Assembly (NCBI GenBank): GCA_040290035.1
Contig: PSMG01000005.1
Coordinates: 17,727 to 81,726 of the forward strand
Reading direction: 5' to 3'
Length of the DNA stretch: 64,000 nucleotides
DNA from: Chitinophagaceae bacterium
Lineage (GTDB): Bacteria; Bacteroidota; Bacteroidia; Chitinophagales; Chitinophagaceae
A program made the translations under genes and the position numbers. The notes under the pieces were generated by a model. That model was given only the letters and a program-made list of their open reading frames with translations, did not search any database and was not told the DNA's origin. Each line of letters opens with the position of its first letter. Within the stretch, counting starts at the first letter, position 1. Below are positions 14,197 through 52,726 of the stretch, in pieces.

Positions 14197-15844
14197 CTGA
14201 CTTCCTCACTGGGACACCCAAGACAAATCAAACAGTTTTAGTAAATCATATTGTTCCTGATTTTTGATTATTAGCCTTGTGTGTTTAGTATGAGAGTAAG
14301 GAGTGGTTATTGTCAGTGCGTAAATTGTTTTTAGGATGTCAATTGCTTTTTCCGGGCTTAGGTTTGCTTTTTTCCTTTTGAGTTGTCGTTCCAGTTCTTT
14401 ATAGACTTTACAAGCAGCAAAAGCAATACAGATGTGAGCCTCTATCCTGCGCTTTAGATAATGAAAAATGGGCCTGATGCGTAAATCTGATTTTGATATT
14501 CTAAACGTTTTTTCGATAAACCATAATTGCTTATAGCTTTCTATCACTTCTTCTTTGGTAAGTTGGGTGTTGGTGAGATAGCCTTTTAATCCATCCCACT
14601 TTTCATCTTCTTTAAATTTATTGTAATCAATGCTAATGTTTATTTCCCCTTCCAGCTTAAGATATTTATTATAGCCCTTATTGTTAATGTGCTTTTTAGA
14701 AAGCTTTCCACCAGCCAATGCCTTTTCTAATTTTTGCAATCCCCGTTTGCGGTTGAACGCATCATTTTTCGCTCGCCCTGCAGAATAGCTGACAATAAGT
14801 TTTTGGCCGTTGCCTTTGTCAATAGTACTGCTGCCGCCATCGTCAAGTTTTAAAGATAGCAGGTGTTGCTGGGCTTGAAGTGTTTCATTCTTAATTCTTG
14901 CCCCTAAAATAAATTCATGCTTTTTTTCGCAAAGTCCTTGTATGTTTTTAGCAGATAGCAGGCCTGCATCTGCCACTACTATTAATTTTTCCAGCTTGTA
15001 TTTTTTCTTTGAAAGTTTCTATAACCAGTATCATCGTATGACCTTCAAATTTGCTGCCTTCAAAGAGTTCATAAGCTAACGGATAACCTTCCGTACTTAC
15101 CAGGAGGCCTAAAACAATCTGCGGTTGTTGATGTTTTCCGTCTTTTGAAAACCCTGTCTGTCGAAAATCATCTTCATCTGCTGCTTCAAAATACAAAGTG
15201 GTTACATCATAAAATACAATGGAAATATCATTATCCAATATTTTTAAAGTATGCTGGTAACTTATCTGCTGAACCAATTGCATCTGCTGGGTTTGCAGCT
15301 TATCTAAGTAGCGATATATTTTTTCTACATCTATGATGAGGCCCTTGTATTTAAAAATATAATCGACCGTTTTGAGCTTGCTTACCGGATATACCAATCT
15401 GGCAATGACGAGTTGTCGAAATAGCTCATCCGGTATTTTGTCAAAACCAATTTCGTCAAATATCTTACCCAGTAAGAGTTCCAAACCAGTTAATTTAAAA
15501 TCTTCAACGCTATTGAAAAAAATATCTACTAATTCTTTTTCCTTATCATCATCAAAAGGTAATTTCTGCTGACCGGTGACATTTTCAATTTCCTTTTTAC
15601 CTTCTTTATAAAGCCGCTCAATCTCTGCCGGCTCTTTAGAACTTCCTATCGTACGATACAGTTCATAGCTTCCAGAACTTTTATCAATAATCTGGATGCT
15701 GACAACTCCGCTTTTATTTTTTTTTCTTCCTAACGAACATACCGCTAAAATACAGCGGGGACAACAAGAGCGAAAATACTTTTATAGTATTGTCAACGGT
15801 TTTAGAAGACTTTTCCATGTTTTTTATTGCAGTGAGGAAGTCAG
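14197..15844 (-). mobile_element. IS1634-family insertion sequence
   Basis: Perfect 15-bp terminal inverted repeats CTGACTTCCTCACTG (14197-14211) and CAGTGAGGAAGTCAG (15830-15844) enclose a DDE transposase. No target-site duplication is visible. Confidence 0.88.
14206..15740 (-). pseudogene. IS1634 transposase, split by two +1 homopolymer frameshifts
   Basis: MFVRKKK.. starts at 15740; A9 tract (15717-15725) and A6 tract (15001-15006) each carry one extra A. Motifs FYDVTTLYFE, GFSKDGK, VADAGLLS, IEKTFRISKSDLRIRPIFH. Confidence 0.85.
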
Positions 15845-16180
15845 AAAAAATTATTCAAAGAGAAAAAAGTGCTCAATTTATTCGAGCCGGTGAACAATGG
15901 TATGGCTTACTTGATAATATGATTTTTCTATATATCAGCAGTAAAAGAATAAATAAAGCGGATTTTCATTTTCTGTAATTGATCGCGGTACTATACAGCA
16001 AAGGTTCAACATCACCATTAAGCATAAACGAAAATATTTACAAGCTAAGGTATAAACAGAAATTTGATTTATTTGTTGGTTTGCCGGCGCAACTGAAATT
16101 TTCAATCTTGAAAATATTATCTTGGAATCTACTTTTTACGATCTGCCACATTTAATCTCTTTTAACCTGTTCTATCTACT

Positions 16181-16210
16181 AAAAAAAGTCCCTGTGTTCC
16201 GGGACCTTTT
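16181..16210 (-). terminator. Intrinsic terminator after nirK
   Basis: Minus strand GTCCC-ggaacaca-GGGAC followed by T7. Confidence 0.65.
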
Positions 16211-16232
16211 ATAAATTTTTTATAGCTGCAAT

Positions 16233-17378
16233 CTATTTTATCGCTGTTGGTTTTTCTATCTGCTTCATATAAGTGCTATCCCACTTTCCTTCCACTTTTA
16301 CCTGGGCCATCGCTCCATAATCAAATGCTTCTATCAGGTTGTGGTCTAAGAAGGCATAAGTGCCAGGCTCCCTGAATTTATACAAAGCTGCTGCTGCGGA
16401 ACCACCGGGAACTTCCCATGTTTCATAATCTGTAAATGGCTTGTTATTAAATTTACCGCCTGGCCAATACAGGTCAGCTTGTCCTCCTATCAAGTGTATC
16501 CTTGTATCACGGTTGGCCTCTCCTGTAATAAATAAAACTTTATCGCCCACTTTAGCAGTCATCGCATTATTGCCTGTCAATGCGCCTACATGCCCATTAA
16601 AAGGAAGAAGAGTTGGCTGTAGAGATTTCATTGCTTCTCCTACTGCGTTGATACTTTCCTGTGGAGTAGCGATATTCAGGACTTTACCATCTTTATCTTT
16701 GGGCAGATAGTAATCTTGCTGCATGATATAATAGGCCTTGTCAAAAGTAACAGAATTGCCATTTTCATCTTTCAAGCCTTCGCGTGGCAAAACCATAATA
16801 GCACCATTCATTCCTGATGTAACATGAATGGGAACCATTACTCCGCCCGGTGCGCAATGGTAAATAAACACTCCTGTTCTGGTAGCTTTAAATCTTAGTT
16901 TTACTTCTTGTCCTGGGTTTACAAGAGTAAGATCTCCACCGCCCATTGCGCCGGTTGATGCATGGAAATCTATATTGTGTGTTTGAGTATTAGTGGCTGG
17001 ATTTTTTAAAGTCAGTTCAATAAAATCATCCTGGTGCACCACTATCATTGGCCCAGGCACTGTGCCGTTAAAAGTAAACGCCCACATAGAATCACCGGGA
17101 GCTATTTCAATTTTCTTTTCTTCAACGGTAAAAGTAACCTGAACTACTTTCGGGCCGTCTTTATCTACCTGGTCAAACTTTGGTAGCATCGGCGGCGCCA
17201 CCATTTCCTGCGTCACTTTAGGTAAATTATCTCCATCTCCGTCATTTTTTTGATCGAGAACTGATGTGCTGCTGTAATTTTTACATGCAGATAATAATAT
17301 TACAAATGAAAATAACAGCATAGATAAAATTCTATAACTGGCTTTTTTTGGATTTGAAGGAAACATTAAATTTTCCAT
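16233..17378 (-). CDS. nirK: Copper-containing nitrite reductase (lipoprotein)
   Basis: Lipobox LSAC; HNIDFH, YHCAP..HVTSGM, RIHLIGG and DHNLIEA supply the type-1 and type-2 Cu ligands and the catalytic Asp/His. Confidence 0.95.
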   Translation of the reverse strand: MENLMFPSNPKKASYRILSMLLFSFVILLSACKNYSSTSVLDQKNDGDGDNLPKVTQEMVAPPMLPKFDQVDKDGPKVVQVTFTVEEKKIEIAPGDSMWAFTFNGTVPGPMIVVHQDDFIELTLKNPATNTQTHNIDFHASTGAMGGGDLTLVNPGQEVKLRFKATRTGVFIYHCAPGGVMVPIHVTSGMNGAIMVLPREGLKDENGNSVTFDKAYYIMQQDYYLPKDKDGKVLNIATPQESINAVGEAMKSLQPTLLPFNGHVGALTGNNAMTAKVGDKVLFITGEANRDTRIHLIGGQADLYWPGGKFNNKPFTDYETWEVPGGSAAAALYKFREPGTYAFLDHNLIEAFDYGAMAQVKVEGKWDSTYMKQIEKPTAIK

Positions 17379-17502
17379 TGAATTATACTTTTTTATTTTT
17401 TAATTGAAAATTAATGTTACGGTTATGACATGTTATTTCTAAAAGAGCGTTGCAAATTTCAATGTTACTCGCGTCTTAAAATATAATTACCCACATTAAT
17501 AA

Positions 17503-17520
17503 ATATGACTTGGATCATAT
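17503..17520. promoter_or_regulatory. CRP/FNR-family-type palindrome upstream of nirK
   Basis: ATATGA-cttgga-TCATAT, a perfect 6-N6-6 inverted repeat with a TGA-N6-TCA core, ~125 bp upstream of the nirK start. Confidence 0.55.
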
Positions 17521-17691
17521 TCTCAAATCCCGGATATTTTTATGAGTTTATAAATTTTAAAAAAACGGATTAATATTTTTTTGCACAAACAATAAATAGA
17601 AATTATGATTATTACCTGCTTTTGCCGGTAGGTAGGTTCTTTTGAAGCGCTTACGCTAACCTTTATTCAAAAATATGATGAGAACTTTTTA

Positions 17692-18044
17692 GTGATGCGC
17701 CCCATTACGTATATCAAAAACTACATGGGTTATTCCAGCTGGACTACACGATACACCACTCCTCCCTATCCTGAATATCCAGCGGGTCATTCTACCAATG
17801 GCGGTATGTTATCGGTAATGCTTGCTGATGAATTTGGCCCTAATTTTTCGTTTTATGTGAACCATTATACTTACTTAAATCAGCCGGCACGTCATTATAA
17901 TTCGTTTGAAGACCTGGCACAGGAAATGGCTATTGCCAGGGTGTATACAGGTATTCATTATAACTAGCGGTATATGCAGGATTGGCTTTAGGAAAGAAAG
18001 TAGCACAGAATATTTTAACCAATGTTCATTTTCTGAAAGAGTAA
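17692..18044 (+). pseudogene. C-terminal remnant of a vanadium haloperoxidase/PAP2-family gene
   Basis: RPITYI, TPPYPEYPAGHS, ARVYTGIHY; frameshift at ~17962 continues ..GLALGKKVAQNIL..KE*. The N-terminal part is absent. Confidence 0.75.
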
Positions 18045-18260
18045 ACTAAAGAACAATTTAAGTGCTTCACACTCTTAAGCATAGAAGCCAGACCAGACGC
18101 CCGGGTGAATTTCCATTGGGGCTTTTTGTTGGAATTCTCTTTACTATTCTTGCCTCAAGTGGTGTCATTAACAGAGAAGAACTCACGCAGGAATGCTTCT
18201 CAGATTAATTTATACAGTGATGTAATTTTCAACGAACCGGATCGATATGGCTTTCCCGAA

Positions 18261-18516
18261 TTAGTCTTTTATAATGGTTTTTTTCTACAACCGTGTTAGA
18301 ACCTCTACCACCTCTGCCACTTAGCAATGCAATTAGAACAATTAAAAACACCACACCAATCAAAATCCACAACCAAGGGATGTTGGTGGCACCGCTGCTA
18401 CTTGTTTTAGTAACACTTACCGAAGAACTTCCGTTACTACCACTGCTGCCATTGTCTTGTGCAAAAGCTACTACGCTTAAAAAAGCTGCTATTACTGAAA
18501 AATAAATCCGTTTCAT
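18261..18516 (-). CDS. Small exported protein: signal peptide, Ser-rich linker, C-terminal TM, basic tail (probable 1-nt frameshift near the end)
   Basis: MKRIYF...AFAQ / DNGSSGSNGSSS.. / IPWLWILIGVVFLIVLIALL / SGRGGRG. Removing one A from the A7 tract (18278-18284) gives ..VVEKTIIKD* ending at 18261. Confidence 0.65.
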
Positions 18517-18570: not shown

Positions 18571-18730
18571 AAAGAAAAACCCTCCACATAAGAGGGGTGC
18601 TTCAATGGTGTTCGTTCAGCGGTGTTAGGAGTTTGTTTTCTTAGGCTAAAGATTGGTTTTCATTTTCATAAGCATAAATAGGTTTTTATAAGGTTTGGTT
18701 CAACCGCTGAAAGGAGAATACCGTGCCAAA
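18571..18730 (-). ncRNA. Candidate sigma54-like short transcript A
   Basis: TTTGGCACGGTATT at 18730-18717, A/C-rich body with MLMKMKTNL* (18675-18646), ACGAACACCA (18615-18606), hairpin CCCTC/GAGGG plus U-tract (18596-18571). Confidence 0.5.
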
Positions 18731-18910
18731 CTGAAGAGTTTGCACAGATTATTTTAAGGTAGGACTGATTATTGCTCTTGCAAGTACCTGGAATTATATG
18801 AGGCTGATGTTGCCTTACTGCGGCATCATATTGATCAAATACACAAGAAAGATTATGAGCATTAAACCGAGAATGGTTATAATAAGTTTTACAGGGCGGC
18901 TTATAAAAAA

Positions 18911-19234
18911 TTAGGGTTTGTATTTAGCTAATTCTTCGGCTTTCATTTGTACTTCTTCCAACCGGGTATAATTTACTGAGTAATAAATTTTCTTTCCTTC
19001 TCTTTTGGTAACAACAAAACCTGCTGCCCGAAGGATGGCTAATTGTTGCGAGGTAACGGATTGCTCCAAACGAAGTTTGATATAGATTTCTGTAACCGTC
19101 AGGCGTTCAAATTGATGCATCAACGAAAGCATTTGCTGGCGCAGTTTGTGATTGATGGCCCTTAAAATAATAGCTGCTTTTTTCAGCTGAATAATTTGAA
19201 GGTCCAAGCCATTTTCCTGAAGCGTTACAGACAT
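18911..19234 (-). CDS. ArsR/SmtB family transcriptional regulator
   Basis: LRAINHKLRQQML, LEQSVTSQQLAILR, KREGKKIYYS winged HTH. Confidence 0.9.
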   Translation of the reverse strand: MSVTLQENGLDLQIIQLKKAAIILRAINHKLRQQMLSLMHQFERLTVTEIYIKLRLEQSVTSQQLAILRAAGFVVTKREGKKIYYSVNYTRLEEVQMKAEELAKYKP

Positions 19235-46226: not shown

Positions 46227-46985
46227 ATGATAAAAGATTTTCCAGGCGAACAATGGAAGACAGTTCGGTTCGATTTTGAATTTACTAATGACTTTCGTCT
46301 TGAAGTTTCCAATTTTGGACGACTTCGGACTTTTAATAAAGTTTCCAATGGCAACCTTATTAAAGGCTCGATGATTAACGGATACCGTATTGTTCGACTG
46401 AAGTTGTATAAGCCGAGAGATGAAAAAGTGCAAGCAAAACTTGACAACCTAAAGCAACAAGTTTTTAAATTGGCAAGGAAACTGAAGTCGCAACAAATTA
46501 ATGGTGAAAACAAGGAAATCATTCACGAAACAACTGCATTGCTGCACATATTTAAAAAGAAGGTGAGTAAAAAGTTTCAGCAAGACCTCAAAGAACGGAC
46601 AATAAATTATCATTCGCTAATTCACCGCCTCGTGGCTGACTATTTTCTTCCAAAACCAAAACCTAACCAAACCATTGTTGCGCATCTTGATTATGACAAA
46701 CTAAATAACAGAGCTGCTAACCTAAAGTGGATGACACCTGAAGAGAATTATGAGCATCAAAAAAGAAGTCCATATGTAATTAAGGACAAGCAACAACGAC
46801 AATTAAGACAACAGTCCAATCCTAACAGAGCAAAGCTGACCGTGACGAGAGTAATGCTATTAAAAAAATTACTTAATGAAGGCAAACCAATGAAACAACT
46901 CGTAAAGGTGTTCAAAGTGACAGATACGCAAATACTTAGAATAAAACGTGGTGAAAACTGGGCAAACGTACCAGCAAAAAGATAG
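46227..46985 (+). CDS. NUMOD4/HNH endonuclease-like protein with a coiled-coil insertion and C-terminal HTH
   Basis: EQWK..EVSNFGRLR (NUMOD4), IHRLVADYF, AHLDYDKLNNRAANLKWMTPEENYEH (HNH), QILRIKRGENW. Confidence 0.85.
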   Translation: MIKDFPGEQWKTVRFDFEFTNDFRLEVSNFGRLRTFNKVSNGNLIKGSMINGYRIVRLKLYKPRDEKVQAKLDNLKQQVFKLARKLKSQQINGENKEIIHETTALLHIFKKKVSKKFQQDLKERTINYHSLIHRLVADYFLPKPKPNQTIVAHLDYDKLNNRAANLKWMTPEENYEHQKRSPYVIKDKQQRQLRQQSNPNRAKLTVTRVMLLKKLLNEGKPMKQLVKVFKVTDTQILRIKRGENWANVPAKR

Positions 46986-51386: not shown

Positions 51387-51836
51387 ATGACAAAATCGAT
51401 AACGCCGAAGAACATTGTTTTGTACGCAGATGATGATGTAGATGATTTGGAACTGGTGCAAGATGCGTTTGCCAAATATTCGAGAGATGTAGAAGTGATC
51501 ACTGCACGTGACGGCAAGGAAGCTTTGCGCATTTTGCAAAAGCTTTCTCCACTTGATCCTAAGCCTTGCCTGATCATCCTGGATGTAAACATGCCTGTAA
51601 TGGATGGTAAGGAAGCACTGGTAAGGATCAGAGAAATGGATGCATTCGACGATGTGCCTGTTGTTTTGTTCACTACTTCTTCTATGCCGATTGATAAGAA
51701 TTTTGCCAGACAGTTCAATGCCGGTTTTATTACCAAGCCGCTTGATATAAAACAAATGGAACTGATTACCGAACAGTTCATTGATCATTGCACAGACGAA
51801 ATTAAAAAGAAAATACGCAGACAAATTGGTAACTAA
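51387..51836 (+). CDS. Single-domain response regulator
   Basis: YADDDVDD, IILDVNMPVMDG, FTTS, FITKP. Confidence 0.93.
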   Translation: MTKSITPKNIVLYADDDVDDLELVQDAFAKYSRDVEVITARDGKEALRILQKLSPLDPKPCLIILDVNMPVMDGKEALVRIREMDAFDDVPVVLFTTSSMPIDKNFARQFNAGFITKPLDIKQMELITEQFIDHCTDEIKKKIRRQIGN

Positions 51837-51844
51837 ATCATACA

Positions 51845-51968
51845 ATAAAAGCCTCTTGTAAGAGGCTTTTACGTTGGTGTTCGTCATTGTCAGAGGGTAG
51901 ACTTAAAAGGTTTCCATAGGAATCAGTTGTCAGTCGCTGCGCTGCTAAAAGTAAATACTATGCCAAAA
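51845..51968 (-). ncRNA. Candidate sigma54-like short transcript B
   Basis: TTTGGCATAGTATTTAC (51967-51951), METF* (51917-51903), ACGAACACCA (51884-51875), terminator AAAAGCCTCT-tgta-AGAGGCTTTT (51847-51870). Confidence 0.55.
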
Positions 51969-52129
51969 ACTTAGCCTGCGCAGTTTTACGATAAAATCAT
52001 TTGTATTTCAACCTTAGTAATGAAGTGGAAGTGCTCTTTTATGAGCCGATGCTGCCGAGTAGCTTTGTTGTTCAAAGCAGTTTTCTCTTGAGCAATTAGT
52101 TTGGTAAGCCTGTGTATCTACACAGGCTT

Positions 52130-52726
52130 TTATTTTACTACAGGTTTATAGCGTGCCTGCTGTGTACTTAGCTTTTGCAATAGGGCTTTTATTTTTTCTA
52201 CACCAATTTTTTGGCTCCATTCAAAAGGACCATATGGATAATTGGTGCCGAGCTTCATAGCGACATCTATTTCTTCTTTTGTACTTACACCTTCTTTTAA
52301 TGCGTAGTAAGCTTCGTTTACGATCATGCTAATGACACGAGGTGTGATGAAGCCAACTACATCAGTTACCCAGCGTATTGTTTTATTGAATTGCTGGAAG
52401 ATGCTTTCGGCTAATTCTTTTTTGCTTCCGTCGATGCAAACCGCTTCGACGACAGCTGCTTTTAATAAGGTAGGCCAACCGTTGATACGAATAAAGGAAG
52501 GATCGATTTCGGGCAGTGTATGTTCAACACTATTAACGATCACTAATGAAGTAGCGGTCTGTAACTTTTGAATACGTTCGGTTTTGTTCTCAAACAATAA
52601 ATCAACAATAACTTCTGCTTCACTTGATAATTCACTTAGATCATTGATCCAAACAGCATCTTGTGGCGCACCGATACTACACAACTCTTCTTTTAATTCA
52701 TCATTAGCAATAATTACTAATTGCAT
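52130..52726 (-). CDS. 3-hydroxyacyl-CoA dehydrogenase family protein (degenerate N-terminus)
   Basis: GFITPRVISMIVNEAY, IDVAMKLGTNYPYGP; no GxGxxG motif; start moved to ATG 52726. Confidence 0.85.
   Translation of the reverse strand: MQLVIIANDELKEELCSIGAPQDAVWINDLSELSSEAEVIVDLLFENKTERIQKLQTATSLVIVNSVEHTLPEIDPSFIRINGWPTLLKAAVVEAVCIDGSKKELAESIFQQFNKTIRWVTDVVGFITPRVISMIVNEAYYALKEGVSTKEEIDVAMKLGTNYPYGPFEWSQKIGVEKIKALLQKLSTQQARYKPVVK

Follow-up and report, generated by a model that had tools for sequence, protein, structure and literature searches.

The window, that is, the whole stretch of 64,000 nucleotides analysed here, comes from an uncultured member of the Chitinophagaceae known from soil metagenomes, including the NCBI MAG GCA_040289715.1. 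It contains two short units, A and B, both read on the minus strand (Table 1). Unit A is flanked by a gene for an ArsR-like regulator and by a gene for a 95-aa membrane protein, beyond which lies a copper nitrite reductase gene. Unit B is flanked by a 3HCDH-domain gene and a response-regulator gene. Because these two genes converge, unit B is neither the promoter region nor the leader of its neighbours, and the convergent layout is also kept in the relative L138. A leader or attenuator of a downstream gene, which was considered as an alternative, is thus impossible for unit B and for its L138 orthologue.

Table 1. Coordinates of units A and B, their parts and their surroundings in the window.
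Feature	Coordinates	Strand	Remarks
Copper nitrite reductase gene	16233-17378		beyond unit A
95-aa membrane protein gene	18229-18516		flank of unit A
Unit A, whole unit	18730-18571	minus	
Unit A, TTTGGCACGGTATTCTC	18730-18714	minus	
Unit A, conserved promoter-like block TTTGGCACGGTATTCTCCTTTCAGC	18706-18730	minus	
Unit A, TGGCAC in the block	18728-18723	minus	
Unit A, -12 position	18717-18714	minus	TCTC instead of TTGC
Unit A, 5' helix arm UUCAGCGGU	18704-18712	minus	predicted fold; pairs with 18614-18622
Unit A, start predicted by sigma-54 spacing	18701-18703	minus	GG at -25/-24 places +1 near 18702; predicted from sequence
Unit A, alternative start	near 18722	minus	if TCAGTTTG (18734-18727) is a sigmaA -7 box; predicted from sequence
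Unit A, tiny ORF	18675-18646	minus	ATG to TAG, 9 codons, MLMKMKTNL
Unit A, invariant 48-nt segment before the terminator	18598-18645	minus	100% identical in X7 relative
Unit A, 10-mer ACGAACACCA	18615-18606	minus	
Unit A, intrinsic terminator	18571-18596	minus	hairpin and T-run
X7 contig, 198 nt	18589-18786		93% identical to the window
ArsR-like regulator gene	18911-19234		flank of unit A
Response-regulator gene	51387-51836	plus	convergent flank of unit B
Unit B, whole unit	51969-51843	minus	
Unit B, TTTGGCATAGTATTTAC	51967-51951	minus	
Unit B, conserved block TTTTTGGCATAGTATTTACTTTTAGC	51944-51969	minus	24/26 identical in L138 orthologue
Unit B, TGGCAT in the block	51965-51960	minus	
Unit B, TTAC in the block	51954-51951	minus	retained in L138
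Unit B, sigmaA-like -7 box TACTTTTA	51953-51946	minus	
Unit B, conserved body	51886-51922	minus	
Unit B, second copy of 10-mer ACGAACACCA	51875-51884	minus	not kept in L138 orthologue
Unit B, terminator, strong, bidirectional	51845-51872	both	conserved in L138
Conserved spacer between B and unit C	51970-52059		AAGAGCACTT.. AAATACAA.. CGTAAAAYTGC, ~90 nt
3HCDH-domain gene	52130-52726	minus	flank of unit B

The elements that a preliminary description had listed are all present on the minus strand, where it had placed them. The terminator of unit A consists of the hairpin CCCTCTTATGTGGAGGG (18596-18580) followed by TTTTTCTTTT, and its T-run is present on the minus strand only. The inverted repeat noted in that description, TTCAGCGG/CCGCTGAA, was also found, and in the predicted fold it gives a 9-bp helix (18712-18704 with 18622-18614), whose 5' arm would be transcribed only if the start site lay upstream of ~18712. 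Unit B carries the identical 10-mer at a second locus, as reported earlier, and its body contains a hairpin, UUCC-URU-GGAA (51922-51912), and the invariant CTACCCTCTGACAA (51900-51887). The terminator at its end is bidirectional: on the minus strand it serves unit B, and on the plus strand it serves the response-regulator gene.

Several other features of the window were observed. The segment that contains nirK (16000-17643) is ~85-99% identical in three unrelated runs (X2-X4), with a likeness that stops abruptly at 17643, which suggests a laterally exchanged cassette; an ORF fragment resembling vanadium haloperoxidase/PAP2 adjoins it on the opposite strand (17692-17967). A free-standing gene resembling HNH/NUMOD4 homing endonucleases (46227-46985, plus) and a gene whose Pfam match to DDE transposases is sub-threshold (14206-15484, minus; 22.1 bits, cut-off 23), overlapped by a second ORF, may be mobile-element remnants. 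Upstream of unit A, TTGATCAATATGAT (18838-18825, minus) bears a loose likeness to an FNR/NnrR box (TTGAT-N4-ATCAA); it may matter, nirK being 1.2 kb downstream, and may equally be a chance match.

The repeated 10-mer alone is uninformative, as it is expected many times in 128 kb, and the best local alignment between A and B is by itself not significant, its score being reached in 28 of 500 shuffles. The two loci are collinear over ~300 nt, and their extended global alignment scores 97, compared with 60.7 +/- 8.7 in dinucleotide shuffles, none of which (0/300) reached 97. When unit B was scanned against 6324 window segments of 220 nt, the top match was the A locus, with a score of 85.5 (mean 40.2, sd 7.5), and the next unrelated segment scored 68. 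Similarly, the best two matches to TTTGGCACAGTATTTGCTTTT in the window are the unit B block (19/21) and the unit A block (17/21), followed by a match of 15. We conclude that the whole-unit similarity between A and B is beyond chance. Its best-conserved segment is the block TTTGGCAYRGTATT..C.TTT. An nhmmer search of all the collected sequences with a profile of B and its L138 orthologue gave box-level matches only and did not recover unit A, indicating that the paralogy of A and B is distant or old. The earlier picture of discrete, repeated, terminator-ended non-coding units is supported for both loci; the 'multi-copy' family that it also proposed comes down to just two copies within the 64 kb.

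Contigs of the same species (L001-L010) are ~100% identical to the window, which makes them uninformative, with the exception of L001. Among six of them, the sole difference in the 394-nt spacer between the ArsR-like and small-protein genes is a change of TGGCAC to TGGTAC in the -24-like box (L001 position 10510, window 18725), and run X1 carries the same change. A more divergent copy of unit A was present in run X7, which was guessed by the tool to be RNA and consists of assembled contigs without strand or end information. Its 198-nt contig shows 14 differences, of which one falls in 18589-18597, none in 18598-18645, nine in 18646-18747, and four in 18748-18786. Thus, there are 0 differences in the 48 nt before the terminator versus 13 in the adjoining 141 nt (18646-18786); at the flanking difference rate, our own arithmetic gives p ~0.01 for such an invariant run. 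The 48-nt segment, which includes CUCCUAACACC, the 3' helix arm and the 10-mer, is proposed as the putative functional core of unit A. Both arms of the 9-bp helix are unaltered in the X7 relative, and the promoter-like block has a single difference (18713 C>T). When X7 was compared with 28 kb of the window, two of its contigs matched over their full length, this one and a 174-nt fragment of a protease gene, and ribosomal protein genes had no X7 coverage. Since X7 covers little else, the 198-nt contig represents an RNA that is abundant or else an element of unusual conservation. The next homologues of the ArsR-like neighbour are at most 72% identical and lie in a persulfide-dioxygenase context; in L140 and L141, which have 61% homologues, the downstream spacer is unrelated. 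A metagenome scan with TTTGGCAYRGTATTYWCYTTTMRSM returned one chance match, within a eukaryotic ligand-gated channel gene.

For unit B, a clear orthologue is found in L138, whose 3HCDH protein is 60% identical to that of the window and whose gene order is the same. The nucleotide identity of unit B (71.8%) compares with 68.4% for the 3HCDH gene and 55.7% for the RidA/3HCDH spacer. The invariant or nearly invariant parts are TTTTTGGCAYRGTATTTACTTTTAGC (24/26, with TTAC kept), TTCCTRTGGAAACCTT, CTACCCTCTGACAAYGA, and the terminator, and conservation upstream of the block equals that of the RNA body (69.6% identity to L138 in the upstream part). Unit B is absent from the other 3HCDH relatives L139 and L143-L148; L137 and L142 are uninformative on this point, as their contigs end 34-78 nt past the 3HCDH gene. 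The purifying selection on A and B is comparable to that on the adjacent genes.

Next to unit B and divergent from it, we observed a candidate small RNA of ~65 nt, unit C, at 52060-52137 on the plus strand of the window and at 2079-2005 on the minus strand of L138. It has a perfect Bacteroidota -7 box, TAGCTTTG (52060-52067, plus), with an equally perfect box, TACTTTTG, at the aligned L138 position. Its body of ~65 nt is highly conserved (AAGCAGTTTTCTCTT.AGCA.TTAGTTTGG), and its hairpin (52106-52129), with one stem pair showing a two-sided change, is followed by a T-run on the plus strand only. In Rfam, this strand gives a sub-threshold MicC-like match (24.8 bits versus a gathering score of 90). 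The conserved spacer at 51970-52059 is possibly a shared control region of B and C.

The explanation that the A-B likeness is fortuitous, or the neutral decay of an old duplication, with terminators that are those of the neighbours and no RNA gene at all, is disfavoured, and we regard it as very improbable. It would account for the local alignment score, the response-regulator gene is also served by the unit B terminator, and with the B-scan segments the A-B pair (69.5) is not among the 12 best of 4416 terminator-upstream pairs. Nevertheless, the extended alignment statistics point to homology, the unit B orthologue is better conserved than the neighbouring coding gene, and unit A contains the 48-nt invariant run.

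Two claims of the preliminary description were not supported by the comparison with relatives. It had proposed a micropeptide, MLMKMKTNL, for unit A. In the X7 relative, the tiny ORF holds four of the nine listed differences, including one at 18673 that makes the start codon ATT instead of ATG and one at 18671 that turns codon 2 from CTT to CCT, and B and its L138 orthologue have no ORF in common. The micropeptide-gene reading was rejected. It had also regarded the 10-mer as a conserved seed. In the L138 orthologue this sequence reads ATAAACCCGT, with 5 of 10 positions matching, while the neighbouring CTACCCTCTGACAA is invariant; when A, B and L138 were realigned by eye, roughly CC.CUGA(CA)AYGA was found in common rather than the 10-mer. 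Target prediction across the 51 gene starts in the window gave pairing no better than that of shuffled seeds, although a scan of 51 starts is uninformative for a genome of several megabases.

No match was obtained when the window was scanned with Rfam 15 at the gathering score, and scans of both loci at E<=10 gave sub-threshold noise, bearing out the expectation that the units belong to no described Rfam family. Comparison of the units with plasmids and phages gave no match, and a mobile-element origin was rejected. A 6S-like abundant RNA was likewise rejected: Rfam gives no 6S match, and the predicted folds lack a rod-like shape, with z-scores that are weak.

Because the units are real, mutually related and kept in two relatives, we take them to be probable genes for small regulatory RNAs, and the best reading is that they form a new, narrowly distributed small-RNA family. 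We put at roughly 0.6 the probability that A and B are ancient paralogues, two copies of a small non-coding RNA gene restricted to this lineage, and that each is free-standing with its own intrinsic terminator. Like trans-acting sRNA genes, they stand free, end in an intrinsic terminator, are conserved across species and have no conserved ORF. Against this reading, the secondary structure common to A and B is the terminator alone; the four copies, from three organisms, permit no real covariation test. Conserved C/U-rich stretches precede the terminator in both units (CUCCUAACACC..CUGAACGA in A and CUACCCUCUGACAAYGA in B), and conservation points to the pre-terminator segment as the likely working part of the RNA. 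We envisage that the block TTTGGCAYRGTATT..C.TTT would be, or overlap, the promoter region and that a start at the block would give an RNA of ~100-150 nt, a start upstream of it a longer one. The C/U-rich stretches would then base-pair with mRNAs, so that the RNAs act in trans, with CUCCUAACACC (A) and CUACCCUCUGACAA (B) as candidate seeds. The putative promoter block combines a good sigma-54 -24 half with a non-canonical -12 half, overlapped in B by a sigmaA-type -7 box.

Three readings of this block differ in the start that they predict. The preliminary description favoured RpoN (sigma-54). In this reading, RNA polymerase with sigma-54 would bind TGGCAY-N5-TNNC, with an enhancer-binding protein at the conserved region upstream, and transcripts would begin near 18702 and 51939. 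The GG expected at -25/-24, as in TGGCAC, is present in A, B, the X7 relative and L138; of the GC expected at -13/-12, 10 nt after GG, the C at -12 is present, at the exact -24/-12 spacing, and the G at -13 is absent. TGGCAY(G/A) is kept in all four copies (A, its relative, B and its orthologue). Its variable positions, Y and R, are ones that sigma-54 logos tolerate, and variation is limited to these two. The unit-derived pattern TTTGGCAYRGTATTNNCYTTT had >118 genomic matches, 42 in Bacteroidota and 16 in Chitinophagales, and it finds many Bacteroidota boxes with a full -12 element (TTGC/TGGC/TCGC); the boxes with the full GC lie 25-50 nt ahead of htpG, thioredoxin and outer-membrane protein genes or of short terminator-ended units. 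G at -13 occurs in 12 of the 16 Chitinophagales matches versus 17 of 76 outside the phylum, and two orthologous Flavisolibacter promoters have TGTC, likewise without G at -13. In Bacteroidota, sigma-54 governs chaperone and envelope protein genes (PMC9723704, PMC12316311), and the matches near htpG and outer-membrane genes fit this published regulon. Moreover, paralogous sRNAs driven by sigma-54 are known, namely Qrr (PMC2632942) and GlmY/GlmZ (PMC3045617). On the other side, the forms without G at -13 (TCTC in A, TTAC in B) are conserved in the orthologues, whereas the five F. psychrophilum SM4 promoters inspected all have this G. A and B also lack TTATCCACA, an element found upstream of canonical Chitinophagales boxes, and the X7 contig reaches 56 nt upstream of the box and 84 nt upstream of the predicted start. 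Matches to the sigma-54 consensus with <=2 mismatches are at chance level in the window, since 54 were found and 69 are expected from shuffles. Neither an rpoN nor a PF00158 gene was found among the ten window ORFs scanned against Pfam, and the sequence upstream of the blocks is conserved but no known enhancer-binding-protein site was recognised in it. RpoN dependence is thus weakened: the correctly spaced TGGCAY stands in 4/4 copies, and the missing G at -13 and the upstream extension of the X7 contig speak against it. The evidence for a sigma-54 promoter at A and B is weak, and we consider their dependence on sigma-54 unlikely.

The block could instead be a housekeeping sigmaA-type Bacteroidota promoter (-7 box TAnnTTTG ~4-7 nt before the start, with an optional -33 TTTG), its sigma-54 likeness being coincidental or vestigial; this we hold to be doubtful as well. 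Two registers would be possible. With TACTTTTA in B and its counterpart in A as the -7 box, the scores are 5/6 in B and L138, where TACTTTTA is retained and places the start no more than 3 nt from the sigma-54-predicted one, and only 3/6 in A; three mismatches in A count against this register, which also leaves the conservation of GGCA unexplained. With nnnnTTTG ending at the first G of GGCA, GCAYRGUAUU.. would be the conserved 5' end of the RNA and the scores across the copies are 5/6, 5/6 and 4/6; TCAGTTTG (A), CATTTTTG (L138) and AGTTTTTG (B) share one end point, and the 9-bp helix of unit A could form with a start near 18722. A SigA promoter of F. psychrophilum in the TSS table reads GTATTTATTTACTTTTAGC, and at E. 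coli glmZ a housekeeping promoter replaces the sigma-54 one (PMC3045617). However, -7 boxes with one mismatch occur about once per 108 nt (1186 in 128 kb), too common to weigh, and the X7 contig extends upstream of this promoter too. Should X7 be RNA, transcription does not start at the block, the contig beginning 56 nt upstream of it. A third reading takes the RNAs to be longer, ~215-290 nt, with a start well upstream (for example near 18831, after TGTATTTG at 18843-18836) and with the TTTGGCAYRGUAUU block as an internal RNA element rather than a promoter. It accommodates the span of the X7 contig (18786-18589), although it is the tool's guess that X7 is RNA, and the conservation of B upstream of the block as much as downstream, for which the divergent candidate unit C, with its perfect -7 box, largely accounts. 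In the RNAalifold structure of B and L138, AAAUAC..RUG and AAAAY are partners of the block, and three two-sided changes are seen, but these pairs rest on the two sequences on which the structure was chosen, and the helices of B are not shared by A. In A, UUUGGCAC of the block pairs with the upstream GUGCAAACU in a hairpin that the relative's change at 18744 disrupts, and the fold z-scores are weak (-1.7 and -1.9). We judge the longer RNAs improbable.

Short units with canonical sigma-54-type boxes were observed elsewhere in the phylum. In Ferruginibacter and other Chitinophagaceae MAGs (L027, L075, L079, L102, L104, L115), a canonical box, TTTGGCATAGTATTGGCTTTT, stands 40-45 nt before a conserved 11-codon ORF, ATGATAAAGACTTTTGCTGGTTTAGGGTTTTATTAG, which encodes MIK[T/S]FAGLGFY, shows synonymous variation at codon 2 (ATA/ATT/ATC), and is followed by a conserved terminator; it is a candidate micropeptide gene that is not in Rfam. 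A DnaA-box-like 9-mer, TTATCCACA, is present 10-11 nt ahead of TTTGGCA in L027, L048, L075, L079, L102, L104, L106, L115 and L125 and in weaker form in L062 and L036; these are several unrelated Chitinophagales units with sigma-54-type boxes, and the 9-mer is absent from the units of the window. Short units without an ORF follow a full TGGCAC-N5-TTGC/TCGC/TGGC in Bacteroidales (L040, L044, L084), Saprospiraceae (L063, L069), and Chitinophagales (L048, L125, L062, L106). Those of Bacteroidales and Saprospiraceae are ~80-90 nt long and end in a terminator. Conservation between species is seen among the three Bacteroidales units, between the two Saprospiraceae units and between L048 and L125. None of the ORF-less units is in Rfam 15, and nineteen Bacteroidota loci with canonical boxes scanned with Rfam gave no sRNA family.

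No Hfq is known from Bacteroidota. We entertain, as a speculation with little weight, that sigma-54-type promoters of Bacteroidota, here with a lineage-specific -12 element other than GC, may drive many tiny stand-alone genes for sRNAs and micropeptides, which would make up a post-transcriptional arm of the sigma-54 proteostasis and envelope-stress regulon that works without Hfq. Almost nothing is known about the small RNAs of the Chitinophagaceae, which are abundant in soil and rhizosphere, and the A/B pair offers an entry point. Recognition by sigma-54 of a box that lacks the -12 GC would widen the accepted promoter definition for the phylum and tie sRNAs to the chaperone and envelope stress regulon (PMC9723704, PMC12316311). 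Without such recognition, A and B would be ordinary sRNA candidates of local interest.

As two related small-RNA candidates, A and B can be set beside known systems. The sigma-54/LuxO-dependent quorum regulatory sRNAs Qrr1-5 of Vibrio are also several paralogous short genes per genome, each gene having a promoter and a terminator to itself, with conservation likewise focused on the promoter and one stretch of the RNA (PMC2632942, PMC10162802). They differ in having the canonical -12 GC and defined LuxO sites and in needing Hfq, whereas A and B are without the -12 GC, no activator site was identified for them, and the 10-mer that they have in common is not conserved in an orthologue. GlmY and GlmZ of Enterobacteriaceae are homologous sRNAs whose sigma-54 promoters can overlap housekeeping ones with the same start, and in E. 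coli glmZ the sigma-54 promoter was lost in favour of a sigma-70 promoter (PMC3045617). Unit B resembles them in having both a sigma-54-like box and a sigmaA-like -7 box, with predicted starts 3 nt apart; A and B share no sequence or structure likeness with GlmY/GlmZ, their promoters are putative, and there is no RapZ/GlmS context here. Within the same phylum, the independent small RNAs Rfp1 and Rfp36 of F. psychrophilum are annotated with putative sigma-54 (SM4) promoters (PMC9723704 supplement). At 202-348 nt, these RNAs have no sequence likeness to A and B, and the inspected SM4 promoters, including that of Rfp1, keep the G at -13. The canonical short units of Chitinophagales, Saprospiraceae and Bacteroidales (the L027 and L048 families, L063/L069 and L040/L044/L084) are like A and B in their extended box, TTTGGCAYRGTATT..CTTTT, in the ~80-130 nt and the terminator that come after it, and in their absence from Rfam. 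They differ from A and B by the GC at -12 and by unrelated bodies, those of Chitinophagales also carry TTATCCACA 10 nt upstream, and one family encodes a conserved 11-aa peptide.
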